64,000 nt of DNA from Nitrosopumilaceae archaeon. Its GTDB lineage: Archaea > Thermoproteota > Nitrososphaeria > Nitrososphaerales > Nitrosopumilaceae. The notes beneath the pieces are model-generated. The model made no database searches. It saw nothing but the letters and a program-made list of their open reading frames with translations, and was not told the origin of the DNA. A program made the position numbers and the translations under genes. Numbering within the stretch: position 1 is the stretch's first letter; each line of letters begins with the position of its first letter. The DNA is taken from the NCBI GenBank assembly GCA_965207375.1, contig CBDBMG010000003.1, forward strand, positions 352,001 through 416,000. The letters are read 5' to 3'. This document shows positions 3,386-35,910 of the stretch, piece by piece.

Positions 3386-6300
3386 ATGTCATAGCCATGG
3401 AGATGGAAGTAAATTCGGTTTGTGTTTAACAGCTATGAGCATGTGTGTAAGTTTTGGTTACTGGTATGGAACACTACATTTTGCAAACTGAAATTTAGAG
3501 AAGTGTAATGGAAATCCTGAAAAGTGCCATTCCATATTCCGCTCTAGATGATGTCCAGTTTCCTGTTCTGTACCAGTCCATGAGTCCAGTCTTCAAAAAT
3601 ACAGTAGGCCACTTTGTACCACAATTTGAATACTTGAAGCCACCATCAAATCTCTAATATGAGCAACACTGATATCCCTGAAATGGTTTTTATAAGAAGG
3701 TGTGTATGTATAATGTGTTAACTGCCTCAATTTTATCACCATCTGAAAGTTATTGGATATCAGTTACACACTTGCAACAGTGCTTTAACTAATACAGATG
3801 GCATAGTTACCAATTTAACATTATAGGCCCCTTGAGGCCTTCCAGCCATTGCAAACCATTTGACTTGGAAAATACAGCACGAGGGGGCATGTCGAGAGAC
3901 CAATTCACCGAGTGCTGTATTTGTCTTGAGATCTCCCAAGTGCTGTATTTTTGTACACACGAGCTTAGGAGGTGCTTTAACTGTTGTATAGTATTTCCAG
4001 CAGTCTTGCCAGGTTCAGCCGCCACAGAGCAGATTATGGAGCACGGTGATTCAAGTTATGGAACCGCTGTTCATCAAACTACCAATCCTGAACTAGGCAC
4101 CAATCCAAAGTATGTAGCTGTAAATTTCTAATGGTAGGGGTGTCAGTGTCGTGATCAACACATAAATCAACAACACAACTGGTAGGCTCACTGAATGACC
4201 ATTAGTGTCAGCTAGCTATCGACACACAAACATAAGGTGGTGCACCATGTGAGCACAAAGAACTTGTTTTTACAGATAAGCACTGAATGGATTTAGTTGA
4301 AATCAGTTATAGTTACTGTGTTCATCATTCTGGCAGAATTTCACACCTACAACAACAACAAATTATGCAAATGGTTTCCATAATAGATTTATTTTCCAAA
4401 TAATATATATTTTCTGCCTTGCAACTTTATGGAAAATATAGCACATCTTTTGTCTTTGATCCTCCCATGCAAAATACTTTTATATCCAGTTAAGAGTTTA
4501 TAATATATACTAATCTGTAGTAGAAATAATGTGTACATACACATGCACATATCAAAGTGTTTGATATATTTGACTGGCACAAAATTTGATAGGGAATTAT
4601 TTGTTTTTTTGGTATGTGTGCTTGATGGTTTGTTTGTGCGCATGTGTACGTGCATGAATCAAAATTAGTTTACGCGAAGAAACTTGCTGTCTAGTTATGA
4701 CTGAAATTAATAAATTGTATGCATGTGAGCACAATTATAAATTATTACATAAAATAGATGATCATGTGAGTTTGTACACTGTTTCTTTTGAGTACTTCAA
4801 CTTCAAGGAGCATGGCTTTAGTTGATGCTATTGTAGTAATGGAACTTTTATGACTGTTGGATGTAGTAAGTTTGGCTTGACGGTGACATTAGAGAAGGAA
4901 AAGGTTGAAGTGAGCTGTACTTTATTAGCTGTACTCAATGTGCTCGTTACACTATATGTTGCACAATGTGCTTGGTATTCTATATGTTGCTCAATAAGTT
5001 CGACATTCTATGGATTACTCAATGGACTTGGGTATCGCTGAAGTTGGGGAAATTGGCTGCAGAGATGCTGCTTGATAAGGTAAACAGACACTTAAGCTTG
5101 TGACATACTGGCCATAGTGACTTATAAAGATCACGATATCATGAAGTAGAATGCTGATGCACTAGCTTGGTCAGGCACTTCACTTAGCCACGTCCTGGGC
5201 TGCCCAATATTCCCCAAATTAAGCCAATCATGCACCCCGGGCTTGGGTAACCCAGCATAATAAGGATGTTAAACATAATTAAGTAGGCACCTGTAACGTT
5301 TTTCAGGCATCTGAAAAGCAAGGACAGGTTGATTTATATTAAATAAACTATATACTTGCGCAAGTAAGCTATAAAAAGCAAACAAACTAGAATAATTAAA
5401 AAGTAAGTAGGGATCGATTTTTCACTGCTACAAAAAGTAAGGAAACAAGGAAAAAGATTTTGGCACAAGAGAACACTAAACATTCTGGCATGATAAAAGT
5501 TTAATCCCTACTTTTGGCTTGATCATACCTATAGTTTGTTCACGTTCACCTGGTGGTTGAGCTAGCAGAAATGAAGCCATTTAAGATCAAAGCATTTTCG
5601 ACATATGTATTCTAACATCACTATTTTAATTATGCGTGACATGTGCGCATAAACGTAAACTGCTCACATTTGCAAAAACACCAAGATGCATACTATACTG
5701 TTTTAAAGGAAGAAAAGTGCTTACACGTATGTTTTAATGAAATATATATCAATAAACCAAGAATGGCAAGGTTAAATAAGTTTTAGTGTGAACGGTAAAA
5801 TTAAAACGAATTGGAAAATTGCTTATTACATATAGCGCTATAGTTGTAATAGATTTACTGTACCTTTAGAGGTATCTTCGAGCGAACAATTCACCATTAG
5901 TGACAAAAATGTATAGAGCTTATTATTATTGACGATACACTGGCAGGACTTTACCACAAATACGTAACGAACATGTATCAACTTGGTAACTTCAAAGGAC
6001 TGTCACGAAATATTTGGTCCGGGTACATAAGTGGTCCGGCTGGACCAATTATGTCGAACATAAATGGTCCCCCCGGACCATTTATGTTGTCAAAAGTGGT
6101 CCGGTCAAAACATAAATGGTCCAGGTGAACAAACAATAAATTCTGCTCACAGTAAATGACAGCAAGCATTAGCTATAGGTATAAATAGTATGCTATGATT
6201 TACAGGATGGTGCTGCTGAGACAACATGACACGAACGCTGCACTGGCGAAAATATAGCTTTCAGTCTGTTCACCAAACCTAATACCGCAAGGTCGCGCGT

Positions 6301-7459
6301 AGCTATACGGAGAGTTTTCCATATATGAAAAAAGCTATCGTTTCAAGCTTTCGTTTCGTAAAAACCCATCGCTTATAAGTCCAGGTAAACCTGCTTACTG
6401 CTAAAGCACACATAAAATCATTTTGAATAAGATTGAAAAGCTGTCAACAATAAAGATTTCCCCAGGCGTCACCATAGATACGAGAAATATTTGATTGTGG
6501 GTTTAAGTTTGTACAAGAGTGTTTGTCACAGTATAATGGCTTGGGACTAAACAGTCTTGATTTTAATATATATAGCCAGAGCTATCAGCGATTTTGTACT
6601 ATTAAGCTAGAAAGGTTAGTTTATAATATACTGAGTATAAGTTAAATAGGGATTGGTAAGAAATTGTACGGCTTCAGGAAAATTTTGCGCTTTAAAAATC
6701 AACCTTGCAATAGGCTTTACCCGAAAAAACCAGCTGGAATGCATTGGTAAGGCTGTAATGATGCTGTACCTTGGTTAAACGAAGCGACAAGTCGAATATT
6801 TCGACCTACAGCCAACTTTGAAAATTTCGAAATTCACCTGTATTTCGTCTGCCAGCCAGCCAGCTGTAAGACCGGGTTGCGCTAGGTGTAGGGCTCCAGA
6901 AATTTCACACAATAAAGGTAATGGCGGCGGATTTACGAAAATGTTATTCCGAAGACGATTTACCACTGTGCCATGGCGATTCCCTTTATCCTTCTTTCCT
7001 TTCCTTGTTCTTCTTTATTCCTTAGCAAGGTGCGAATCTCACCGAAGGTGACGATAGCCTGTAACGGCTTCTGCTTATTATGTCACACAAAAACCTGGCT
7101 TGCACGTGATATAATTAGTTACAGTGGCACGATATTTGTGCATGTACTTTATTACATCGTGAACTTCGAGATTATAGTCTTGGACAAATAGCTTTTGCTG
7201 TTTTTCGAGTGTTATTTGCTATCACACAGCTGCTTTGCCATGTAAGCGTGTTGTTAACAAGCGCCTGTAAACAAGCATAATTATTACGTAAGCGCCTGTA
7301 ACATTTTGTGCCTGCTGAAAGATTATTATGAATGCTTAGCATGTATAAAAAAAGCAAACAAACTAGAATGATAAACAAGTTGACGTATTACCATCTAAAA
7401 ACCAGGCGCTTTGTGTAAGTTAAACCACTGTTAATCTACTGTTATTCAATGTATTGTAA

Positions 7460-10351
7460 TTGTTCGAAAGCACAGAGATAATGCTCCAGCTGATGTCAAT
7501 AACTCTTCCTCTGCTTCTGGGTCTAACAGAAATGGCAGCAGGACTGCCTCCTGATAATTCGCTAAATCCATATAGTGTATTTAAATTATTTGTGATTAAC
7601 TGTAGAGGTCTCAAATCCAAAAAGGATTCATTCGTTCACCTGATCCACTCACAATCACCTCATTTTATAGCTGGCACTGAATCTTGGCTGGATTCTACTA
7701 CCCTTTCTAATGAAATTTTTCCTGTTAATTATCAGGTTTTTCGAAACGATAGATCAGATGGTTATGGTGGGGTATTCTTTGCTTGTCATAACACCATTGA
7801 CTGTAGTCAAGTTACTTTTACAAGCCCTTGTGAGGTTATTATTTGCAAGGTAGAGATGATTAATAGTAAAGTTTTGATCGTTGTTACCGCTTATAGACCA
7901 CCCAACCGAGACCTTGTATATATGCAAAACCTCTGCCAACTTATTTCAGAAATACATAGTAAATACAAAAATGCTGTAATTTGGATCACTGGTGATTTCA
8001 ATTTACCTGATATTAATTGGAGTCTCAATTCCGTTACCAACAATTCTTACCCATTAGATATTAGTACTTTATTAATTGATGAATTTAATTCTGGTGGTTT
8101 TATTCAGATGGTTAGTCAACCAACAAGAGGAAATAACATCTTAGATTTGTTTGCCACTAACAGACCTTCATTAGTTGAGCATACAGAAGTTATCCCAGGA
8201 ATAAGTGACCATGAAATTGTGTCTGTTAAATTAACATTATCGGTAACAGTTAATAAACCTAAAGTGCATAACGTGTACTTGTGGAATAGAGCAGACTTCC
8301 AAGATATTAATGATGTGATAACTCAGTTTTCTAATACCTTCTTATCTGATAATTCTGTTGATACTCCAGTTCAGGAACTATGGGATTCTTTTAAGACTAT
8401 GTGCCAAAAGTGCTTAGAATTGGTTCCACGTAAATCTCTTTCTAGCTCTATTAAATATCCTTGGATAACAACACAAATCAAACGGCTCTCTAATAAAAAG
8501 CGGCGCTTGTACAATCGTGCTCGCTATTCTGGCCTTCAGTCTGATTGGTTGGCATATTACGACTTGAAGAAATTTGTGCAACATGAATGTCGTAAGGCTC
8601 ATGATACATATGTGGCAGATTTGCTAACCTCTAACAATGGTCACATTAATAAACGTTTCTGGACATACATTAAAGGAAAAAGAAATGAGCAATGCGGAGT
8701 TCCATCCTTAGTGAAAAATCATTATACTTTTTCAGATAATACATCAAAGGCTAATATATTAAATAATCAGTTTTCCTCGGTATTCACTACAGATAATGAT
8801 TGCTCCACCATGTTTGATGGTCACCCATATCCAGCCATCCCCACCATTCAAATTGATACACTCGGAGTGACCAGTTTGTTGAGCAATCTGGATCCACACA
8901 AGGCACCCGGCCCTGACGGAATCCCTCCAAGGCTCCTGAAGGAAACATCTAGCAGTATTGCTCCTGTACTTACTCTTATATATAAAGCTTCCTTAAATCA
9001 AGGCAAGCTTCCTAGTGATTGGAAAAGAGCATTTGTCGTACCAATTTTTAAGAAAGGTTCCCGGACTGATCCCTCAAACTATCGACCTATATCCCTGACT
9101 TGTATTTGTTGCAAACTTTTAGAGCATATAATTTCCTCTGCAATATCTACTCAGGCCAACCACCATAACATTATATGCAAACAGCAACATGGATTTAGAA
9201 AAAACCGCTCATGTGAGACTCAACTATTGGAAACTGTCAATGATCTTGCCTTGTCTTTGAATGCTGGTGAACACATAGATTTTATTTAACTCGATTTTTC
9301 AAAGGCGTTTGATAAAGTGTCTCACAATTGCCTGTTGTATAAACTATCTTATTATGGTATTAATGGAGAGCTTTTTGACTGGATAAGTGATTTTTTAACC
9401 AATAGACATCAGGAGGTTATATTAAACAATATCCATAGTGATCCATGCAAAGTCCTGTCTGGAGTTCCTCAGGGTTCGGTTTTAGGCCCATTGCTTTTTC
9501 TGTTGTTTATCAATGATTTACCGGACAATATTTCATCAAGCATAAGATTGTATGCTGACGATGTTATAATCTACAGATCTATTTACTCTAATGAAGATGT
9601 GATACACTTGCAAATGGATCTTGACACTTTATCAAAGTGGGCACTTGATTGGCACATAACATTTAACTTAGATAAATGTGAACATTTGGTCATCACTAAT
9701 ATCCGCTCTCCATTGTGCTCTGAGTATAAAATTAATGACCATAGTATTTGCAAGGTGTCTAATGCAAAATATCTGGGGGTCACAATTAATCATAATCTTT
9801 CCTGGGCTAATCACATTGGAACAATTAGTCGAAAGGCTAATGCAGTACATGGATTCTTGCAGAGGAACTTAAGAAAATGCTCTACATCAATCAAGTCATT
9901 GGCATACTTTACGTACGTGAGGCCCATTTTAGAATATGCATCAGTCGTCTGGGCACCTCATACCAAGTGTCTTATTACAATGTTAGAAAAAATTCAACGC
10001 AGGGCTGCACGTTTTGTGTGTAATAATTATTCCAGATACAACAGTGTTACCGACATGCTCAACTTGTTGAATTGGCAATCTTTAGAACAAAGAAGGAATC
10101 AAGTTAAATCTATTATGTTTTACAAAATTATAAACAACATAGTCTCTGTTAACCTTCACCAATACTTACAACCATCAGTAGCCATCACACGAGGGCATCA
10201 TTTAAGGTTTATTCAATTGCAGGCAAGAGTAGATGTTTACCTTCATTCATTTTTGCCATCAACTATACGTTTGTGGAACTCTCTGCCAGCCAACATGGTA
10301 TCATCACTTACCATTGATAACTTCAAAAACAAACTAACATCAATTAATTAA
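7460..10351 (+). pseudogene. LINE ORF2 (APE endonuclease + reverse transcriptase), CR1/L2-group, single premature stop
   Basis: EN motifs INCRGL, TESWL, YRPP, GDFN, SDH; RT motifs NYRPISL, QHGF, DFSKAFDKV, GVPQGSVLGP, YADD, YLGV. In-frame TAA at 9287-9289 splits the two listed ORFs (same frame). Confidence 0.93.
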
Positions 10352-10455
10352 TACATGCACATTATACTCTGCATAGAGGTCTGTGCATAATTATAAACCA
10401 AGTACTAAGAATAATACAAATTGCGGTTAAAAGTGACGTCAAAACTGGGCGTATA

Positions 10456-10560
10456 TAAGTCTTAGGTAATTATGTCTTAGGTAATTAAGTCTTAGGTAAT
10501 TAAGTCTTAGGTAATTAAGTCTTAGGTAATTAAGTCTTAGGTAATTAAGTATTAGGTAAT
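10456..10560 (+). repeat. 15-bp tandem repeat x7 (taagtcttaggtaat)
   Basis: Directly visible; same unit on the opposite strand at about 34397-34441 (x3) and 35170-35247 (x5). Confidence 0.95.
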
Positions 10561-11102
10561 TAATTATTGGCTAAACTACGCACTCTAGACACACAAACTA
10601 ACCTTTAAATAAATCACCGTTTCGTAGCGATTCATTAATATGTAGGGTTTCATTTAACTCCCTGTACTTAAAAAGTGCTATTTAAACTCTAATAAATGCC
10701 TACCGGTCAAACCCGCCCAGCGTGTACACGGGAGTCGATGGGTGGTGTGGTATGCAAGCCATACAAAAGCTGTAAACAAGTACACGAGGAACGGAATTCT
10801 CCGTGTATTTTATTAATGGAGAGGATTGCCATGTGACGTCGATTGTAAAGTGGCTGGCTAATGGGCGATTAACCATAGAAGCCATGTCGCCTAAGCTTGT
10901 GGTAAGTTTATTATAATAATTATTAAATTATCTGTGGTGTGTATTACTACAGTGTATTTGTTGTTGTAGCTACTGTATGTATGTAATACTGTAGTAGTAG
11001 AGTATGTATCAATGTTCATTAATGCTGTATATACGTGTCAAATGATTGGGCCTTGTATATTCACTAATTATACTTTAGATGTAGGCTACTTGATATTTCA
11101 GT

Positions 11103-11346
11103 GTAACCGGCCTGCGATCTGAGCGCAAATTACACTTAGTTAGATAATCATAATTATAAATATCTTTAGTTGTAAAAGGAGTAGTAGGATGCTGTTAGCT
11201 CTAAAAGATGCTCCATTAAATTCTGCATTTGTGGTAGAAAATCTGTGTGGTTAGTTTAAACATACCATAAATTATGATAAGATAAAGTTGAAAAAATTAG
11301 GCAATTGTTACACGACTACATGGTTGATTTTCGCAGGCCCAGTCAC
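11103..11346. mobile_element. Sola1-like MITE nested in the HINE-like element
   Basis: gtaaccggcctgcga / tcgcaggcccagtcac; homologous to 60389-60606. Confidence 0.7.
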
Positions 11347-11971
11347 ATTTTAGGACTATTGTTGTCCTGTGATTATATGTTGATATAATGACTACCCGCT
11401 TGGTGGTTGATCCGAAATGACTGTACTTGGTTTAGGGTCATCGTTGCTAGTAATAATAATAATAATAATAATAATAATAGCCCTCAATGACGTCACCAGT
11501 AAGTCACGTGAGCAGAGACTCATCACTAAGGAACACATAGCAACGCATGCGAATTTAATTCTTCTGTTTAAACCCGCTTTATACTCCAGTACTTTAGTGA
11601 TAAAACTTTTTGAAAGTAGTATAAAGTTGTTTTATGCCGAAATTCTTACTGTAACACTATAGGCCAGTCTTCTTTTATAAGCTCCGCAACCCGCACGACA
11701 CGCCCACTTATAAAACTAAAGCCCTCCGTCTTGTTAGTAATGTACAACTGGTTAAACGGCTTTTACCGTGTAATGGACGGCAAATACAGCATTACCTTGC
11801 TTTTCTTTGGAAGTAAAACACGACGCGCTACGTTACTAAGGCCCCGCCCATCAACAGTATCGATAGTAAGTGCCGTACAGAGAAACTGAAAGGCAGTAGG
11901 ACTTGTTTGGTTGGTTATTCAGACTTCCTTTCACGTGAATAGTTTTTAATAGCCCGGGGGCGGACACACAG

Positions 11972-25210: not shown

Positions 25211-25992
25211 TACAACAATTAACACAGCACACAATAGCACTTACCTTAGAATGGATAAACCCACTGTGTTATCCTCCACCTTCAACAGTTCTGAACAATA
25301 CTCAGCTGATAACGTGGCGCTTTCTAATTAAAGTGCCTTATCTAGGAAACCTTAGTGTTATATATGACGCGGAAAATAAAGGACTTAGTTATTTTTCTAG
25401 CGATGAAAATAAAGGGTTGAAATCAATAGCTGAAATACGTTGCTCAGTTATAAAATCACTTATTACAGGCAGTATGGCGTCAATAAGATTGGTCACATAA
25501 TGTTGAGGTCGTTTTGGCACATGCACCACGGGCGTTCGTATGGCTTCTCGATCTTTATGGAGGAAGTTTTGGCTCATGTCTTCCAATCCCTTTAGAAAAC
25601 GAACTTTTTAAAATATCACAGACCTGAGTAGGGGCATTTTAAAGATACGCCAACAGTTTTTATTTCTGATTTCGACTTTGTGTGGACTGTAGATGCGCGA
25701 AAGAAGAAGAAAGAAGAAGATGGAGAAATTGGGGTATTTTCAAAAACATGAAAAATATAGATACCATATAGCTAGGCTTTTTATACTTCGGTAATAGTCT
25801 TAGGAGTATTGAAAGAGGATCTGGGCGGTTTTTTCAACAGCATAGGAAGCTTTAAAGATGGTTTTTGGCGTACGTTCTATTAGAGTGTTTACACAATTTT
25901 TCGTTGGATCCCTATTATGAACCACTACCGTGGTTCATGATATCCTTCTAGATGATGACACACATAGAAGTGCAAATTACGAAAATATATGA

Positions 25993-26064
25993 CAGCTGGA
26001 TGTTTACTGCTGTAGCCAGCTGGGTGTTTACTGCTGTAGCCAGCTGGGTGTTTACTGCTATCCC
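25993..26064 (+). repeat. 24-bp tandem repeat x3
   Basis: cagctgggtgtttactgctgtagc. Confidence 0.9.
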
Positions 26065-29000
26065 AGTCTTGGTGTTGCCTGGAAACAGATGTCCTAGTCC
26101 TGCCTTGAACATGTTTATCAAATTGCTGTATAAAGATAGGGAGGACTTTACACATGAACAAATAATAGTACATGTTCTGAGCTATTTTGTAGTTAGTAAT
26201 TGTGCTGTTTTTACACACCAGTGTGTAGTTTGGTCACATAAGTCTGTAAATTTTGTTTGTCTTCACATTACTCACCCATGTTGTTACATAGTTAGCACCA
26301 AGTGTAATTGGTTGATATAGTCCCTCCACATTCCCGTGCATATTGCACACTCATGCATATATATCAACCGATCACAAAATGTGGTAGCTATACAGTAACA
26401 AAGCTATAGTGGAATGTAGCTACGCATAAAATTTTTAGTGTTGGTATGAAGCCTGGAATAAGGCAATATAATAGCACATTGGTAATACATGTGCATGTAG
26501 ATATTTACTGCTATTGCTCTTATGTGTAAGTAAGACTTCTATGTGTTCTTGGCCTGCCCACCACACTTCAATAGGACTGCTAGCTACATAGTCAACTACA
26601 TATGGCTTTGATGACCTCTTAGTATTGCTCCTGAGTACAGGAGAGGCCACAGTGTGTGTGCTTTAGTTGAAGTGTGTGAGGCTGCAGTACACTGATTTAT
26701 TGTAATCTAGAATATCAATTCAAGAGGCTCACTGCTAACCAAGACTAGTTTGTAAACACATAATGTACATATATACAACTACTGAGCTTTGTTTGTTAAT
26801 TGCTATAAGTTTTAGCTGACATGACTATATAATTACGTTCTTCTGATTGATGCTACCACATAAAAATGTGAATGTCGAAGATACAAATAGATACTCTTGA
26901 TGTTGTAAATGTGTGGTAGTGTTCTCTCAATACTGGCTGGGCTAAAAACAGCCCAAGTATTGCTACCTGCATCAAAAACATACACATTAAAGTTAAACAT
27001 GTGACTAAAACACAACATTTCTACATCAGTACCCCAGGTAGCATTTCTAGTCATCCTACTATTATCAATATACTCTTGAACACTATGGACATTAAAGAGT
27101 TCTAAGAAATTAGCATGGCCAGTGCTGTCACGCCCAATTAATAAATTTTCAATAGACAACATGTAGCTTAATATGGCCTCACGTATTTCCATATGCTGAG
27201 CTTCAGTGCCTGTTGTGACATATGACAATGCACGGAAGTAACAATTACCATCTGGCTGAACATTTCTTAAAGAACGGAGGTCAGGTCTGGTTAATACAGT
27301 ATCTGGGCCACCAGGTTGAAATTCAGCTGAACGGACAAATCTTATACCTAACCTAGTACAGGCCTGTCGTTGCCACCTTTCATCAGTTTGGTAATAACGG
27401 TATTCTGGCCATACAGTTCTGTTGGGACCAATGACATTGACTGTGTCTGTGATTATACAATCATCATTGTGTTTGGGTTTTTTAATTGGCTGGTTTACTA
27501 CATTACGTTTTCTTTTTATCCTTTGAGTTGAATAGGTGCTTCCTGTATTCTGGAGTATTGGTTTTTTTTACGTTCTTCCTTTTATATTGTGCAGGCTTGG
27601 CTACTGGATTAGGATATCTAGCTGGTGGGCCATCATAGGGTGGTGACCTTATAACATCAACAGAGTCACACCATTTCAATAGCTGTTTATAGTAAGGGGC
27701 AATCTTAATGGCAGAAGGGGTATAAGTCCACAGTGTAAGATTATGTAATGTACGTACACGACTCAAAGCTACATATGCTTGGCCAGATGCAAAAAAATTT
27801 TGGTTCAATGTTACAATGGCTTTATCTACAGTAAGGCCTTGTACCCTGTGTACTGTTACAGCATAGGCTAGCTGTACTGGGAATTGAGAACGTAGAATAG
27901 AATAAGAAGCACCTTTGATATCAATTTTTGTTTAGTTCTTGGGATAGGATATTTTTCTTTAGGTGACCCAATTTTGCATACCAAAATACAATTGGGTGTC
28001 ATTGCAAGAACTTCACACATTGCTCCATTCACCCACCCCTCAGAAATATGTAAGTTACGTCTTAATACTATGCAACAGCCTTCCTTTAGAATTAGTTTAT
28101 CAGGTAGTCGTATAGTATTTTTGTTAAGCCTTAGCTTGTCAGCTTCTCTAAGGGGTTGTCCATTTGTGTCTGTGTCTATAGCCACATATTCCTGAACTGT
28201 ACCACAAATATAATTCAGACACTCTGCATTGATTTGATCCACTTCTTTACGTCTGGAACAGATAATTACAGTACGACATAAATCTACTGAAGCAATGTCG
28301 ACAGATCTGAGTCTACCCTTCAGTACAGAAGCAACTTCATCATCTACTATACCCTCTCTTATTTTCAATAGTGTGGCACTCAAGGTTGGATCCTTAGCTC
28401 TAACAGGTTCCTTTAGTTGCATAACACTAAAAGAACTTAACCATATTTTTGTGTTAAATATGTCAGTATTTGATACAGGTGGCAGTTGAGCAGGATCACC
28501 AAACAATAATACATGGCGACCACCCCATGGCTTGTATCGATTGTCTTTAGAAGAGAATCTTCGACAAAGATGCTCAATGGTAATAAAAAGGCTACAATCT
28601 ATCATGCTTAGTTCATCAATAATTAATACATCTGTCTTTTTTACAAGGGATGAATCAACAGTGCCATTTTCTAATGAACTTTTGCCATATATATCGATTT
28701 TAAAAAAAATTATGGATCGTGGTCCCTTTTATTAGAGATGCTGCGACACCACTAGGTGCTAGTTTCGTAACCACCAAATTGCATTGTCTCAGGTATTCTA
28801 CCATGGCACCCATCACAAAAGACTTACCACATCCTGCAGCACCAACTAGTGCAACTAGTATCTGAGAGGTATTTTGTTCTACTGAATTTTTTAACCAATC
28901 AAAAGCTCTTTGTTGGGATGCTGTGAATTTATTAGTGTATTCTTCTAATGGTACATGATGAGGAGGGAGTAATGAACCACCATCTTGGTCATCTAATAGC

Positions 29001-29564
29001 TGGTCAGTGACCTCTCTTACTTCTTCCTTGCTTGAGGTGCCTGTGGGTAATGTAGTGAGAAAAGCATCTGCTTTGTCTTCATCTAAAAATTGGTGCTCCA
29101 CATACATTTTAACAATAGACTGTATGTTTTCTAAGCTGAAACCACGATTAACAGCATCCATGAGAGTAGCCATAGCATCATGCTGTTCATCTACCAGGTT
29201 AGCTTCCATAGCTGCTTTTACCCATGATGATGGTGGCTCATTGATAATATTGTTAGTTAAAGTAAGGGGTACTGTGAGCAAATACTTTTGCTCATAGTAT
29301 GACTCCTGGTCATCTATTGTTATAAATCGGTGTCTAGTGATAGCAGCAGTAGCTCTTCTTACCCAGTATGTACCATTACCATCTACTAGCATACTACCTG
29401 GTGGATACCGTTCTAACATGACATACATAGAAGAAGACTGTATTTCATCATTATTGTAGATTTGTAAGAGCTTAGCATGGAGCCAGTGAAGTTTTTCAGG
29501 CCTGTTAGTAGAACTATCAAAAAGACCAGTATCTTTCAGAATATTAGTAGCTTCAGTAATATCA

Positions 29565-29772
29565 TTTTCACTAGGTTCAGGTAGCTCACCCTCACCATTT
29601 TCACTGGGTTCAGGTAGCTCACCCTCACCACTTTCACAAGCTTCAGGTAGCTCACCCTCACCACTTTCACTAGCTTTAGGTAGCTCACCCTCACCACTTA
29701 CACTAGCTTCAGGTAGCTCACCCTCACCACTTTCACTAGCTTCAGGTAGCTCACCCTCACCACTTTCACTAT
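29565..29772 (-). repeat. 30-bp (10-aa) coding tandem repeat, about 6.5 copies, SESGEGELPE
   Basis: Visible in DNA and ORF 28700..31054. Confidence 0.93.
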
Positions 29773-32489
29773 CAGCTTTTAAATCATGGTCCAGACCTAA
29801 GAAAATATTTTTTAAAATAGCTGCTGTATTATCATTTTTAGCAGCAGTGGTTATAACTGTCTGTATGGCAGTGTATAGATGACCTTTAGTTTTTAATTCA
29901 TCACTCAACTTGTTGACTTTGTTGCTGAGATTAATAATGGAAGCCTTTAACTCCTCAAATTCATCAACACCTTTAAAGCCTATTAAGGGTGTTAATCCTT
30001 TTTCTGTGGCCTTCTCACCTTTACATTGTTCACTATAGTTTGATTTACGCCACCATTGAAAGTACATAGGATAAGTTATATCATTTAAGCCACTATTGCG
30101 CAACAAATAAACTTGGTGCTTAGTACTCACATATACATCTTCAGAATCTTGTGGGAGACTTGCTAATTGAACTCTATGTTTAAGGAACTGCCGCTGAGGC
30201 TTCAGCTCTGTAACTAAAAATACAGTACTTCTACTTAGATGAAACTGGTGAAATCCTAATTGAACATCTATTGCCTCACAAGCGCCAATTATTCTAGTAC
30301 GTAAATACTTTTCAGGCTCAGTAGGATTTTGAGAGAGTTTAACATTAAAACTACTTTCTGGCTTTGAAATATATTTAGCAAGATACATTTCAAACCCATG
30401 CCTGGCCACACGTTGTATGTTCATAGATGCTCCCCAAAACAATAAAATCTCTAAATTGTATGGTACAACGAGTTGGTCTTCCTTGCATCTACGAGTATAC
30501 AAAAAACGAATACCATCCTCGTCTAGTTCTTCAGTAAGTTGAGGAACTTTAAAAGGAAAGCCATACTTACATTTTGTAAGTATTTTGCCAGCATAGCCTT
30601 TAAAATATCTTTCTGGGCGGCACTCATGGTGCATTTGATACTTCTGCACCATTCTTCGTGCATATTGAGCTTGCACATTTTCAGTATCATAACTACGGGG
30701 TATTTCGGCTAACACAACATTGTCCGGTGTAGTGCCTGGCACAACCCAAAACAGGATATGCCAGTGCAACCCTCCACGTTTCTGATATTCTTTTTTGACA
30801 GCATAGTCTGTAATGATACCTAAAGGACCTGATTTTTTATCAAGCAAGATGTCCATCATGGCACTAAAACGTTTTTCAGCACCAAGAACAGACTCTAAAG
30901 GATTATGGCCAACTGCCTTTTCATCATTGGGCCTGTACGTTAAATCTTGAAACTCCGAAGGATTTGCACTAGCACCCCATCCTTTCTTAATAGTTGATTG
31001 TATTTGAGGCCAGTTATCATTAGGGGACAAGGTCAAAAAAGTCAGGTATTCCAAGTTGTTCTGTCATGGCAACTAGGTCATAGCTAAAAGACTTCCAATA
31101 CTGCTTAGACCCAGGAATTACACGGGGCACTTCTGTACCATAAGAGGCATAAGGATCAGATGTGATTGCATTAGCTGCAATTACTTTAGCTGCTGTCAAG
31201 CTTTCCTCCAGCTTACTACTTGTCACTACTTTTCTAGCATTATACGATCTTAAACGTATTTTGGTCATATAATCAAACATAAAGAATGGGAAATTAACAT
31301 CATTTGCAAATAGGCCCCTGGAGTCAAGTAGTCTAATTTTGGTAAACTGGGAAAACCCTAATAAACACTTGTAATACCAGCCACCTTGACCATATGGAAA
31401 TAAATGGGGAAAAGCCTTTTCCAATAAGAACTCTTGGCCATATTGTACACTTGTACATTCACGTAACCATTCAATACTGTCCTGCGCTTTATCAACCATG
31501 TGTGCCTGGGGATTCTGGATACCGGCAATATCCAGATTCCCATACAAAGGAGAATACTGGTCAAAATATCGTGAATCAACAGGAAAGGCCATACCTAGGG
31601 CTTCACTTTCAAGTATTTCATCTTGGTTCCCTTTTAAAATGTCAGGATTAACAATATCATTCCGTAAATATCGGTACATTGTTTCAAAACGGGCTAAAAA
31701 TTGTTTATATAGATTATTGTTTTTCTTAAACCAATTCAATGCAACTCTTATACGCTCACATGCATCAGGATATTTGGTAAGCCCCTCCGTTATTTTGTTA
31801 TTTATCATTAGAAAGCCAAACATCCCATAGTAATGCCTGTCTAATTTATGTAATGTATTCACTTCTCCTTGTATGTGCCGCCACTGGTGCTTTTTTGCAT
31901 CTTTTATTGTTGTAGAAAATATGCCACATAAAGCTACTTGGCATTTCTCAGCTTCACTTTTTAAAGATGTTACCTCAGGAGGGTAAACCATATCCCACTT
32001 AGCAGCAGTTAAGTTGTCAGTTTTTCCCACATGGAATGTTAAATTGTATTCTGTTGGATTTTTATAAGAGCTGCATACTGAACATGCATATAATTTACCA
32101 CTTTTATGACGATAGTCAAGATGTCCTTTACCACTGATTACCATGGCACATTGGTAAGCCACTGCTGGTATCATTTCATCCTCTACATCAAGGTTCACTA
32201 ATCGAGTATGAGCATTATCAACCCTTGACCATAAAATGCTACCACAGCAGTAGCACATCCCTATACCTAAAGGTTTAGCATCAAATCTCACCTGTTGTCC
32301 AATTCGTTTTTTAGCTCTAACTAAAAGATCATCATTTAAGGACAAACTATCAGTATTCCATGTTGTAGGCAATTCATACTGTTTCATATACTGAATTAAA
32401 AGGGTCAAATTGTCCTCAATAAACATGTCAGCTTCATCAGTTGAGATGTTGTTACAGTAACTGTCCTCTACTGAGTTACTACTACTATC

Positions 32490-33200
32490 TGGACGACCGG
32501 TTGATGCACTAAATCCTGCATCTCGAGTAGTGCCAACAGGGCGTCCAGTTGGTACATTCATCTCAATGTCAACATCAGATGTGGGGGGTCCGGTTGATGC
32601 ACTAAACCCTGCATCTCGAGTAGTGCCAACAGGGCGTCCAGTTGGTACATTCATCTCAATGTCAACATCAGATGTGGGGGGTCCGGTTGATGCACTAAAC
32701 CCTGCATCTCGAGTAGTGCCAACAGGGCGTCCAGTTGGTACATTCATCTCAATGTCAACATCAGATGTGGGGGGTCCGGTTGATGCACTAAACCCTGCAT
32801 CTCGAGTAGTGCCAACAGGGCGTCCAGTTGGTACATTCATCTCAATGTCAACATCAGATGTGGGGGGTCTGGTTGATGCACTAAACTCTGCATCTCGAGT
32901 AGTGCCAACAGGGCGTCCAGTTGGCACATTCATCTCAATGTCAACATCAGATGTGTGGGGTCCGGTTGATGCACTAAAGCCTGCATCTCGAGTAGTGCCA
33001 ACAGGGCGTCCAGTTGGTACATTCATCTTAATGTCAACATCAGAAGTGGGGGGTCCAGTTGATGCACTAAGGCCTGCATCTCGAGTAGTGCCAACAGTGC
33101 GTCCAGTTGGTACATTCATTTCAATGTCAACATCAGATGTGGGGGGTCCGGTTGATGCACTAAACCCTGCATCTTGAGTTGTACCAATTGGACGTCCAAT
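32490..33200 (-). repeat. 90-bp (30-aa) coding tandem repeat, about 7.7 copies, GRPVGTTRDAGFSASTGPPTSDVDIEMNVPT
   Basis: Visible in DNA and ORF 31020..33629. Confidence 0.95.
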
Positions 33201-34511
33201 TGCCAGCTTTCCATGTTTTCTAAAAAGCTTATAACCACATTCACAAGTTTTTTTCCTGACGTGAACTTGAATATTACAATTGGGACACACTGTATAAAAA
33301 GGTCCAGGATTGACTTCTACATCACCACTGCAAAGTAGTAGCATAGAAACAACATAGATTATGAATACAGGCATATGCAACACAGCAAAATCAAACCAAT
33401 CATTTAATGATGTGTGTAACATGCCTTTTACATGCAACACAGCATCAAACCAGTCATATACTATGTGCAATAAGTTTACATACAACATAGCAATATCAAA
33501 CCAATCATTTACTGCTAACATGCCATTTTCAAATGCATTATTGGTATACTTGTGACCAATGTTACAGTAGCACTTGAATTTCCAGTTAAAAGATCCGATA
33601 ACATTTCTCCATTGTACTATGTCAATCATTTTGTTTCCTTGAAAACTGTAAAAAATATGTATGAGTGTGTTTCTTCATGCAATCTACATAATTACATTAT
33701 TATTGATATTATAAATTATAATTATACAGTGCACATACACCAGTAGCTACACAATTAACACCTTAGCAATCTATTACCACTTGCAGAATTACATAAAACC
33801 ATAGATTATATACGTATATAAATATCTATGAAGCAGTGAGAAATTCCTCGAGAAATTCAAAACGTCTCGCCACTGACAGCTATTGTCTTGGTTAGCCAGA
33901 AAAATTCCCAACCCAACGCGCAAACTGAGGCGCACGCTTGCTGTCTATGCGCCAAAAGCATAATACATTCACACAACTTTGCTAATCAATGACAATACAG
34001 TCATGTCGATCTAAGAAATAATCCTTCGACAAAACCTTCGATGTTTACGAATTACACTACGAGCGCGCAATAAATAGACTAGCACTATACGTACAATACA
34101 ACAACAAAACAACAAAACAACAGGGACAAACAACTAACCTTCAAGAATTTCAAATGTTTACTCGCGTGATCACGCTCGTCAATTGGAGTGACAAAAACAA
34201 ATTTCTGCGGAGTTATCCGAAAAGGCACATGGTCATTTGGAAATGGCGTTTATTAGAATTAACGCTTTTTAAAAGAAAGAGAGTTAAGTAATTTCCTACA
34301 TTTAAAAAGATCGCTGTTGAACAAGGACCCCATTAAAGGTTAGCTTAAGTGTCTAGAGTGCGTAGTTTAGTCGTGGTTTTTAATTACATCATATTTAATT
34401 ACCTAAGACTTAATTACCTAAGACTTAATTACCTAAGACTTATTTACGCCCATTTTTGACGTCACTTTTAACCACAGTTTTTATTATTGTACTTGGTTGT
34501 ATAATTATTTA

Positions 34512-35250
34512 CTAGCAACGATGACCCTAAACCAAGTACAGTCATTTCGGAGCAACCACCCACCGGGTTAATAACTAGACATATTAAAATCACAGCCAGG
34601 ACTACAATCAGCTAGCCAGGTAACTTATATAACAGGGAAATGGGTTGATTGGTTGGTTACTGGCTTCTAATTACTAAGGCAGAATAAGAGGAATAAAAAT
34701 GTACACACCACAAAAATCTACACATTATTAACATAGTTCTAAGCTGTGCAAAGTATACGTAGCTATTAAAACATTTTTATAAAATTAGTTAATACAATCA
34801 AACATACCACTAGTCAGTTAGCTATGGCTTCAATAAATTCATTAGCAAACACCAACCCACTTCGAAATCCATGCCTCGCTGCAACAACAACTGCTATCTT
34901 ATTCACCTGATGTCGCTCGTCAATTGGAACGCGCTCATTAATTGGGTAGTGAGTTACTAAAAATAGATTTGTACGAAGTTATCCTGAGTTATCCGTAATA
35001 TCGCATGGTGAATGTACTAGGCGTTTATTAGAATTTTTATATTGTAAACGAGTAGGAGTTTGGCAAATCGCTACATTTAAAAAGAACGCCATTAAATGAG
35101 GATCCGATTAAAGGTTAGTTTATGTGTCTAAAGTGCGTAGTTTATCCGTGGCTTTTAATTACATCATACTTAATTACCTAAGACTTAAATACCTAATACT
35201 TAATTACCCAATACTTAATTACCTAAGACTTAATTACCTAAGACTTATAT
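34512..35250 (-). mobile_element. Second non-autonomous partner (5'-truncated), head-to-tail with the autonomous copy
   Basis: actagcaacgatgaccctaaaccaagtacagtcatttcgg (34511-34550) is the reverse complement of the 3' end at 11412-11451; 34910-35247 resembles 34170-34441. Confidence 0.75.
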
Positions 35251-35910
35251 GTGGAGTGTGGCTTCCAGCCAGCTAGAGGTTTTATCATACATTGGCAAGG
35301 GGTCTGACACTCGAGAATTTTTGCATGAGGTTTAGTTTACCAACAGTTCATGATATATTATAACTATTATATTATAAACTCTTGACTTTACCAAATTAGG
35401 CTGTAAATATCACGTGATTATAAATATACGGAGAAAAACAAAAATTTACATTCAGCAGTTGTGTAAGAGATTTGGAGCATTGGGCAGCGAATAGGTATTA
35501 ACTTGATAGGAACGAGAACAATACATAATTAATTTTTATGCCACACACAAAATCATACATAAATAAAACTCACACTCGACGACGATGGCTTAAGCTTCGT
35601 GTAGCGAGTCTTTTGATCTTGTATCTTTGCTACTGACGAAGCTACAAAAGCAAAGGACGCACCAATTCCACCACAGCCATAAGGGCGTCTAAAATTATAT
35701 GTCTAGGCGCTAATGGATGTTATGCGGCTTGCGCGTTTAATCTCGGCGTACATGGACTCGCATGGACCAGAAAACAGCGTTTTACCACGGTAGAAAACTG
35801 ATCTGGAAAGAATTTTCCGAGCTGTTTGTATGATGGAAGGTTTAAAGGTACTATAACTATCCGACACTACTTAAGATATGTGTTTGTTTGGCTGTTATTT
35901 AACTTTCATG

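Follow-up and report, generated by a model that had tools for sequence, protein, structure and literature searches.

What kind of rolling-circle transposon lies in a stretch of DNA deposited with an archaeon, and how is it related to the short elements that share its ends? Here, we present an analysis of this question for a 64,000-nucleotide stretch (the window), which covers positions 352001-416000 of contig CBDBMG010000003.1 (C4) in a 4-contig, 4.3-Mb assembly filed under a Nitrosopumilaceae archaeon. On its minus strand, the window carries a coding element of ~8.6 kb (25948-34504) with a gene for a Rep-Pif1-OTU transposase, and elsewhere it carries short noncoding elements, of which the first (P1; 10391-11450) is complete and the second (P2; 34512-35247) lies next to the coding element. 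The preliminary description of the locus had proposed an undescribed lineage in animals, intermediate between Helitrons and Helentrons. Our analysis leads, with a probability of about 0.65, to a family of the HLE2 group (Helentron/Helitron2) of Helitron-like elements (HLE) in probable sponge DNA, composed of this one coding copy and of HINE-like derivatives of ~1 kb. The family is a structural variant within HLE2 that resembles proto-Helentrons; it is neither a strict Helentron nor a link between the groups.

The window is eukaryote-like DNA deposited with a prokaryote. Reading frames of at least 150 amino acids (aa) cover 70% of the largest contig (C1; 2.16 Mb), which is prokaryote-like, and only 7-14% of the repeat-rich contigs C2, C3, and C4 (0.43, 0.78, and 0.93 Mb); therefore, we read the DNA of the window as eukaryote-like. 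The marker-based completeness of the assembly (99.95%) is blind to such a mixture of prokaryotic and eukaryotic contigs. As judged from sequence resemblance, the host is likely an animal and probably a sponge. A relative of another element on the same eukaryote-like contigs is named from a sponge, and a protein cluster look-up (Atlas) returned generic Helitron clusters only, one of which is commonest in Porifera.

The gene of the coding element (26833-33629, minus strand, with the ATG at 33629) is split in the assembly into five frame pieces (33674-31020, 31063-28700, 28728-27868, 27931-27503, and 27567-26833). Together, these pieces would encode one protein of ~2,270 aa with a zinc-ribbon and repeat N-terminus, a diverged DUF6570-like region, an HUH/Y2 Rep, a Pif1 helicase, and an OTU protease. 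P0151, an uninterrupted relative of 2251 aa, aligns colinearly with the pieces at 58-83% identity. The genes of P0151 and P0152 are both uninterrupted (79% identical), and one of the two is located on a 1.9-Mb contig. Using Pfam, we found the repeat region (DUF5568), Helitron_like_N, PIF1, and OTU; the Exo_endo_phos (AP endonuclease) domain is absent from all five pieces, as the preliminary description had stated for a Rep-Pif1-OTU protein, and from the frames in the 885 bp past the stop. The motifs of the protein, all on the minus strand, are Rep motif 2, RGGLHWH, in which H-W-H is the HUH (30758-30778); the Rep tyrosine motif YLAKY (30371-30385), aligned to Y727 and Y731 of Helraiser; ALNWFKKNNNLY (31707-31742), in the diverged DUF6570-like N-terminal region common to HLE2 transposases; the Walker A motif GAAGCGKS of the Pif1 helicase (28820-28843); and the OTU catalytic-cysteine motif DGNCYF (27235-27252), the cysteine column of which is at least 90% conserved in 15 relatives. 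Two in-frame tandem repeats lie inside the gene, one between Rep and helicase (29566-29771; 33 bp, 6.2 copies) and one in the N-terminus (32497-33202; 93 bp, 7.6 copies) that matches Pfam DUF5568 and is common to many relatives.

The relatives of this protein place it in HLE2. A scan of 1.84 billion representative proteins gave 1533 matches at E ≤0.001; among 30 long matches, Pfam assigned OTU to five, DUF6570 to one, and an endonuclease to none. A search for longer proteins gave 27 matches at E ≤1e-10, namely, 26 long close relatives (1413-2403 aa) and one distant tardigrade protein; in precomputed Pfam assignments, 18 of the 27 have OTU, and none has Exo_endo_phos or DUF6570. Several of these 27 sit on contigs of 1-2.9 Mb. 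When 15 relatives were rescanned, 14 had OTU and none had an endonuclease. An endonuclease-bearing Helentron was found in 0/30, 0/27, and 0/15 relatives and in 0/13 frames from nine further loci. In a profile-profile comparison using hhalign, 15 family members aligned with 12 DUF6570-bearing HLE2 proteins over columns 258-1743 (probability 100; E 2e-106), and the alignment spans the HLE2-specific N-terminal region that Pfam calls DUF6570 in the DUF6570-bearing set. In the window piece, Pfam DUF6570 gave no match even at an E of 1, while the profile-profile alignment covers the region, including ALxWLKxNNxLY. In a maximum likelihood tree (62 rows picked from search matches; 1087 columns; LG+G4; support as ultrafast bootstrap/SH-aLRT), 12 classic Helitron (HLE1) proteins separate from the other 50 at 100/100, and a quick tree agrees. 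Within a 34-row clade (96/97), the window piece belongs to a 12-row family (100/100); the clade also contains OTU-bearing proteins and P0149, a protein with a Pfam DUF6570 match. Compared with Helraiser, the 787-aa window piece scores only 22 bits, two pieces of a classic Helitron on C2 score 146 and 124 bits, and a Rep piece on C3 gives no match.

The ends of the family were defined using P1, a complete, HINE-like, nonautonomous element of 1060 bp on the plus strand with the 5' end TTATAAACCAAGTAC and the 3' end GTACTTGGTTTAGGGTCATCGTTGCTAG. The TT start, the CTAG end, and the asymmetric 12-bp subterminal inverted repeat that had been noted for P1 are all present in the sequence. The 5' arm (TAAACCAAGTAC; 10394-10405) and the 3' arm (GTACTTGGTTTA; 11423-11434) are 100% complementary; 3 nt precede the 5' arm, and 16 nt, closing in CTAG, follow the 3' arm. 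The 3' arm is inside the loop of the sole 3' hairpin, a weak 5-bp ATGAC/GTCAT stem (−3.2 to −5.5 kcal/mol) that ends 7 nt before the terminus; the 16 nt after the arm contain no fold, and the 5' 70 nt of the elements fold only weakly (−1.3 to −4.2 kcal/mol). Near the 5' end of P1, a 15-bp unit, TAAGTCTTAGGTAAT, is tandemly repeated 7.2 times (10456-10563, plus strand); this unit is present in P1, P2, and the coding element alike. A second full P1-type copy lies at C4:668305-667112, with 98% identity over the first 556 bp. P2 is a 5'-truncated copy on the minus strand that begins within the 15-bp repeats and lacks the first ~62 nt of the family 5' end; thus, the second partner in the preliminary description holds up at its 3' end at 34512 and is incomplete at the other end. 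This 28-nt 3' end (34512-34539, minus strand) matches that of P1, with two matches in the window versus 0 expected from 100 shuffles, and is separated from the 5' end of the coding element by a 7-bp spacer, TAAATAA (34505-34511, minus strand).

Collecting copies of the termini had been suggested as a check, and a survey of the 2.14 Mb of eukaryote-like contigs C2-C4 showed family ends at eight loci, namely, P1, P2, the coding element, and copies B, C, G, F, and H. All five 5' ends start with TTATA and all six 3' ends close in CTAG, including the candidate end at 25948 described below. The repeat arm co-varies at one position: P1-type ends pair TAAACC... with ...GGTTTA, and the 5' arm of the coding element, ACAACCAAGTAC (34489-34500, minus strand), is exactly complementary to GTACTTGGTTGT, the 3' arm in an isolated 3' end at C3:518636-518669. 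Exact-pattern scans for the family 3' end in genome and metagenome contig collections gave 0 stretches.

P1 also reveals the target. It is positioned exactly between the body of a long interspersed nuclear element (LINE) and the (TAA)n tail of this LINE. The 3' part of the LINE (7460-10390, plus strand) contains endonuclease and reverse-transcriptase frames (7460-10351) with one stop between them, and (TAA)9.7 (11451-11479, plus strand), its own microsatellite tail, forms the other flank. A paralogous empty site on C2 (404829-405259) contains the last 431 bp of the LINE at 96.8% identity, ending at the junction; it reads ...GTGCATAA|TAATAATAATAAAGTG..., compared with ...GTGCATAA|P1|TAATAA(TAA)n in the window. 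Because the P1-free paralogue runs straight from ...GCATAA into TAATAATAATAA, P1 was inserted at this one site between A and T (or, with a 1-nt shift, between T and A) without target duplication, in line with what had been proposed, and TT is excluded. The (TAA)n tract was also considered as a part of the element and rejected, since it is the LINE tail and is present at the empty site. Every copy starts with TT, and the flanks alone cannot distinguish an A|T target with a TT start from a T|T target with a T start; for P1, this ambiguity is resolved because the empty site holds no TT. Among the flanks, A precedes the 5' end in 5/5 (TAA in 4/5), and CTAG is followed by T in 4/6 and by TAATAA or TAAATAA in 4/6. 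A search of the flanks yielded no second empty site: a paralogue extends up to the junction for the left side of P1 alone, repeats matching the sequence left of copy B break off 83 bp before it, and C, G, and F have unique flanks. We infer a preference of the family for TAA tracts, which the TAAATAA spacer and a (TAA)4 before copy C fit.

These ends and this target bear on the proposed intermediate. The preliminary description had pointed to a mixed structure in oomycete proto-Helentrons, and the features do match those in Thomas et al. (2014; PMC4067079), in which the Phytophthora proto-Helentron has a 5' TT, a 3' CTAG, an A|T target, and no endonuclease. A true evolutionary intermediate would sit at the base of HLE2, before the split of Helentron and Helitron2, with ancestral Helitron-type ends (CTAG, A|T) kept and subterminal repeats already there, and would be the equivalent of the proto-Helentron in animals. 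The match to the 2014 description is in line with this idea, and so are the finding in HELIANO (Li et al., 2024; PMC11417382) of the proto-Helentron only in Phytophthora among 404 genomes and the base of the HLE2 side of our tree, at which the 34-row clade may be basal. However, this clade shares the HLE2-specific N-terminal region and includes P0149 with its Pfam DUF6570 match, and the family is not on the long branch to the classic Helitrons (0.7 + 0.7). Moreover, Heringer and Kuhn (PMC8788227) read proto-Helentrons as Helentrons with derived Helitron-like features, and Chellapan et al. (PMC5148889) describe ends and targets of Helitron2-like elements that differ by family, such that those of HLE2 vary widely, e.g., in the FoHeli subgroups of Fusarium. 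Altogether, we consider a true intermediate quite unlikely. The claim of an undescribed intermediate lineage is also at odds with the position of the family on the HLE2 side of the 100/100 split, with its 26 long close relatives, and with the published endonuclease-free HLE2 elements that have varied ends and targets (PMC11417382, PMC5148889).

Rep motif 2 had been taken as a further sign of an intermediate state. According to Thomas et al. (PMC4067079), this motif separates Helentrons (RGSPH) from Helitrons (RGLPH). RGGLHWH was read correctly in the window; however, the family consensus is RGAxHWH, while that of the DUF6570-bearing HLE2 set is RGLQHFH. The S-versus-L rule fails across both sets, and therefore, RGGLHWH is uninformative on an intermediate state; we rejected it as a lineage marker.

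Could a transposase other than that of the coding copy move the short elements? A classic Helitron is one candidate, and the 5' likeness of the short elements to the Rep-Pif1-OTU copy would then have arisen by end capture or chimerism. Both CTAG and A|T are hallmarks of HLE1; P1 shares 92% over 425 bp with a P1-type 5' end on C2, compared with 88% over 129 bp with that of the coding element; a decayed HLE1 RepHel lies ~2.5 kb downstream of this C2 end on the same strand; and the coding copy has no good family 3' end. Nevertheless, HLE1 elements start with TC and lack terminal inverted repeats as defined in HELIANO (PMC11417382), while the 12-nt repeat here co-varies between subfamilies. In addition, several unrelated repeats separate the HLE1 frames from the C2 5' end, and another repeat interrupts that copy. 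On balance, we regard this explanation as unlikely. The classic Helitron on C2 (C2:412000-430500, minus strand) consists of decayed Rep and Pif1 pieces with 124 and 146 bits to Helraiser, and several unrelated repeats lie between it and the P1-type 5' end ~2.5 kb upstream. Combining the two into one element was tried and rejected because these unrelated repeats intervene.

The borders of the coding element bear on whether it is a partner of the short elements at all. Its 5' end at 34504 (TTATACAACCAAGTAC) is firm and related to the P1 5' end, as the preliminary description had noted, with 88% identity over 129 bp followed by 76% over ~200 bp. For the other border, previously set at 26800, we found no family-type 3' end at that position or anywhere within 15 kb downstream of the gene (10-mer with ≤2 mismatches; blastn-short). 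There is only a degenerate candidate at 25948 (...TGCACTTCTATGTGTGTCATCATCTAG), which lies 885 bp past the stop and 4 bp before an unrelated abundant repeat (from 25943). The pattern [CT]ACTT-N6-10-GTCA[TC]C-N1-5-CTAG occurs at seven places on both strands of the 4.3 Mb, comprising five known ends, the candidate, and one chance match. One could argue that the ~310 bp at 34504-34195 are a fragment of a short element that inserted, at a TAA-rich hot spot, beside a RepHel remnant that is unrelated and lacks ends. Such fragments appear to be highly multi-copy, P2 ends only 7 bp away as expected from repeated insertions at one spot, and contig depth shows no further near-identical copies of the coding body against which the borders could be checked. 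On the other hand, the 5' end sits 875 bp ahead of the ATG on the coding strand, the candidate 3' end shares CACTT...GTCATC..CTAG with the family, and the 5' repeat variant of the coding copy has its matching 3' variant at C3:518636-518669. We therefore find it very unlikely that the two kinds of elements are unrelated.

The preliminary description had regarded the coding copy as being of the autonomous type. In the assembly, its frame changes four times, each time in a homopolymer (T6, T8, A5, and A8 on the coding strand), and one of these breaks is kept in the reads. As read evidence, we used Logan short-read contigs from four public runs of three studies; among 12 runs listed for the sequence, none was of RNA. 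In all four runs, a base is missing at 27562 and an extra base is present at 27924, and two records spanning 28562-28802 are shorter than the window by 1 nt; with these three changes, frames 2-5 join into a frame of 1402 aa. The fourth break is the T6 run in Rep motif 1 (31035-31040, minus strand; GIPDFF/LTLSPNDNW), which has 7 T in 4/4 runs, while the reading of the relatives needs 8 (or 5); the reading PDFFLTLS of P0151 at this run requires 8 T. Thus, three frameshifts look like assembly errors, while the break in the T run is genuine in the animals sampled unless the missing base is provided by slippage. The T run may simply be a slip that inactivated the gene, or it may be prone to slippage; as a bolder side reading, 7 T in the reads with 8 needed could act as a slippage-dependent throttle on transposase output. 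Because the frameshift in Rep motif 1 stays and the 3' signal is degraded, this coding copy has probably lost its activity. Separately, the four runs agree with one another over 26448-29400 and differ from the window at many single bases there (e.g., 12 in 974 bp), while there are no such differences in 31173-32133; these differences could reflect another haplotype or population or uneven polishing.

Summed contig depth, which is not a copy number, differs strongly between the two kinds of elements. In run X1, it is ~360-910 over the coding body (outside repeat-rich bins), similar to the 614 over the unique flank at 35259-35675, and ~296,000-331,000 over 34425-35258. Over this last interval, depth is 2-3 orders of magnitude higher than over the coding body in three of the four runs and 14- to 218-fold higher in the thin fourth run. 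From these depths, we take the short elements to be multi-copy; further copies of the coding body at ≥90% identity left no sign in contig depth. Joints in the read contigs that bypass parts of 34291-35196 have arms of 19-43 nt lying in repeats, and we interpret them as other copies rather than deletions.

Several observations weigh against our assignment to HLE2 or against parts of it. With regard to the transposase, Pfam detects DUF6570 weakly and in only 3/15 family members (best E 0.0027), which would also suit an intermediate, and the non-classic (HLE2) side of the tree begins with an unresolved fork of four lineages. The preliminary description had called for a Rep and helicase phylogeny; our tree delivers the separation from the classic Helitrons, and its rows include no endonuclease-bearing Helentron, no curated Helitron2, and no proto-Helentron sequence. 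With regard to the ends, the weak 3' hairpin encloses the repeat arm, unlike in textbook HLE2 elements, where a stem-loop follows it. Similarity between the coding copy and the short elements is limited to the first ~310 bp; at the candidate 3' end, only 25/60 columns agree with the family ends, mostly within the last 30, and the repeat arm there pairs with the 5' arm at 8/12 positions. Because the loose 3' pattern was shaped after the candidate had been seen, the candidate is a lead only. The case for the target comes from one empty site, which a 1-nt shift (T|A, with an element TA...CTAGT) fits equally well, and the base after CTAG is A in 2/6 flanks. Finally, there is a single coding copy among contigs C2-C4, with eight loci in all, and the frameshift in the T run persists in 4/4 runs, with 7 T still stopping the frame.

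In published schemes, the family does not fit neatly into either group. In HELIANO, HLE1 elements are defined by TC...hairpin-CTRR and an A-T target, and HLE2 elements by terminal inverted repeats of 12-16 nt, a 3' stem-loop, and a T-T target; the endonuclease occurs almost only in HLE2 subgroup b, OTU occurs in both groups, and DUF6570 is a marker of HLE2 (PMC11417382). We file the family as an HLE2 variant because two HLE2 features fail, i.e., the TT target and the 3' stem-loop, and two HLE1 features fail as well, i.e., the TC start and the HLE1 transposase. Like HLE2 elements and their HINE/DINE-1 partners (PMC4067079, PMC11417382), the family has a RepHel on the same side of the tree, an N-terminal region that resembles DUF6570, OTU, a 12-nt (sub)terminal repeat a few nt from the 5' end (11-18 nt in HLE2), no target duplication, and short noncoding elements with tandem repeats. 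It differs from HLE2 in the A|T (or T|A) target at the empty site in the window versus T|T, although published HLE2 targets vary (PMC5148889); in the weak hairpin that encloses the repeat, where in HLE2 a stem-loop follows it; and in having OTU and RepHel in one frame, with OTU fused at the C-terminus. In mite HINEs, 38-60 nt separate the 3' repeat arm from the end versus 16 nt (CTAG) in the family studied here. Strict Helentrons (HLE2 subgroup b) are alike in the broad transposase group and in the subterminal repeats; however, they carry a fusion of RepHel and AP endonuclease, and no endonuclease was found in the window or in the relatives examined.

The canonical Helitrons (HLE1), as represented by Helraiser (PDB 7LCC), share with the family the CTRR-type CTAG, the A|T target without duplication, the HUH with two tyrosines, and Pif1. 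In contrast, they start with TC, while all five 5' ends here start with TT, and the subterminal inverted repeat is a feature of the window family; their hairpin lies 10-12 nt before the end compared with the weak hairpin 7 nt before the terminus here, and the transposases are set apart by the low score to Helraiser and by the 100/100 split from the 12 HLE1 proteins. FoHeli1-5 of Fusarium oxysporum (PMC5148889) resemble the family in their asymmetric terminal repeats, the absence of an endonuclease, ends and targets other than TT, and insertions a few bp apart. They differ in their termini (TCAG...ATTTT; TGCCT...CTCCTGT) and their fungal host, and the passages on them report no fused OTU.

The closest structural match is proto-Helentron-Pi of P. 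infestans (PMC4067079, PMC11417382), which has the 5' TT, the 3' CTAG, A|T insertion without duplication, repeats of ~12 nt, and an HLE2-type RepHel without endonuclease; this comparison was made from the published descriptions. HELIANO re-reads the proto-Helentron as an HLE2 element with ~12-nt repeats and a 5' stem-loop similar to "HLE2-reverse" (PMC11417382). Proto-Helentron-Pi is ~14 kb and contains SET and other genes compared with ~8.6 kb, one gene, and an animal-like genome for the window element, and its left repeat lies ~3.6 kb inside, behind the 5' stem-loop, versus 3 nt from the 5' end (nt 4) here. We tentatively suggest that an animal, probably sponge, HLE2 family has joined subterminal repeats to Helitron1-type ends (5' TT, 3' CTAG, A|T), homes to (TAA)n tracts, and is a structural counterpart of the proto-Helentron; this more specific proposal is possible rather than probable. 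Among the papers listed in a search for Helitrons or Helentrons in sponges, none deals with such elements as judged by title and abstract; the tables of HELIANO may list sponge genomes.

Returning to the broader assignment to HLE2, we speculate, by analogy to Helraiser and the literature on HLE, that transposition of the family would proceed as follows. Rep would nick at the 5' end (A|TT), the helicase would unwind in the 5' to 3' direction, and transfer would stop at the 3' signal, in which the subterminal repeat in the weak hairpin is followed by CTAG. The excised strand would insert between A and T of TAA-rich sites, e.g., (TAA)n tails of LINEs, without duplication, and the short elements would be mobilised in trans.

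Some further features of the DNA were noted. The inner segment of P1 at 11117-11348 (P1 positions 727-958) is a separate repeat, with at least 10 copies at 71-87% in C2-C4, and is either a nested insertion or captured DNA. At window position 34509, two contigs of run X8 continue past CTAG-TAA into sequence that resembles a diverged family 5' end, hinting that junctions of a 3' end, a short TAA spacer, and a 5' end recur elsewhere in the host genome. The unrelated repeat that runs from 25943 downward to below 25000 on the minus strand is very abundant; it starts with ATATCATGAACCACGGTAGTGGTTCAT, has a terminal hairpin with a 9-bp stem, is present in at least five copies (93-97%) in 2.1 Mb, and exceeds the rest of the stretch in summed contig depth. 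At C3:308000-324000, an HLE2 element (positions 4057-11221 of this segment, plus strand) encodes DUF6570, Rep, Pif1, and UCH in three adjoining frames. Protein-guided scans detected only distant relatives, three at 36-45% (L018-L020) and one at 30% (L097). An inverted-repeat search in L020 gave 42 pairs, which are uninformative without a second copy. L097 (1-18103), on a contig titled as a metagenome-assembled genome of Bdellovibrionales, comprises two head-to-tail copies that are 99% identical with a period of ~12.5 kb and carry a gene for a 2370-aa RepHel 30% identical to the window family; L097 probably represents a tandem Helitron-like array from a eukaryote that was binned with bacterial DNA.

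The picture of the origins of Helitron-like elements is unchanged by this family. Its importance lies in annotation, for which Helitron-like elements are sorted by their ends and target, with TC...CTRR in AT on the one side and inverted repeats in TT on the other. A family with an enzyme of the second group and the ends and target of the first indicates that these sorting rules are not tied to the phylogeny of the transposase, and the borders of this family would be misplaced by tools in which HLE2 targets are presumed to be TT. With its partners of 1 kb and its single-gene element, the family would provide a compact test case to determine which part of the end signal sets cleavage and target choice. 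Moreover, the proto-Helentron layout would not be an oddity of oomycetes.

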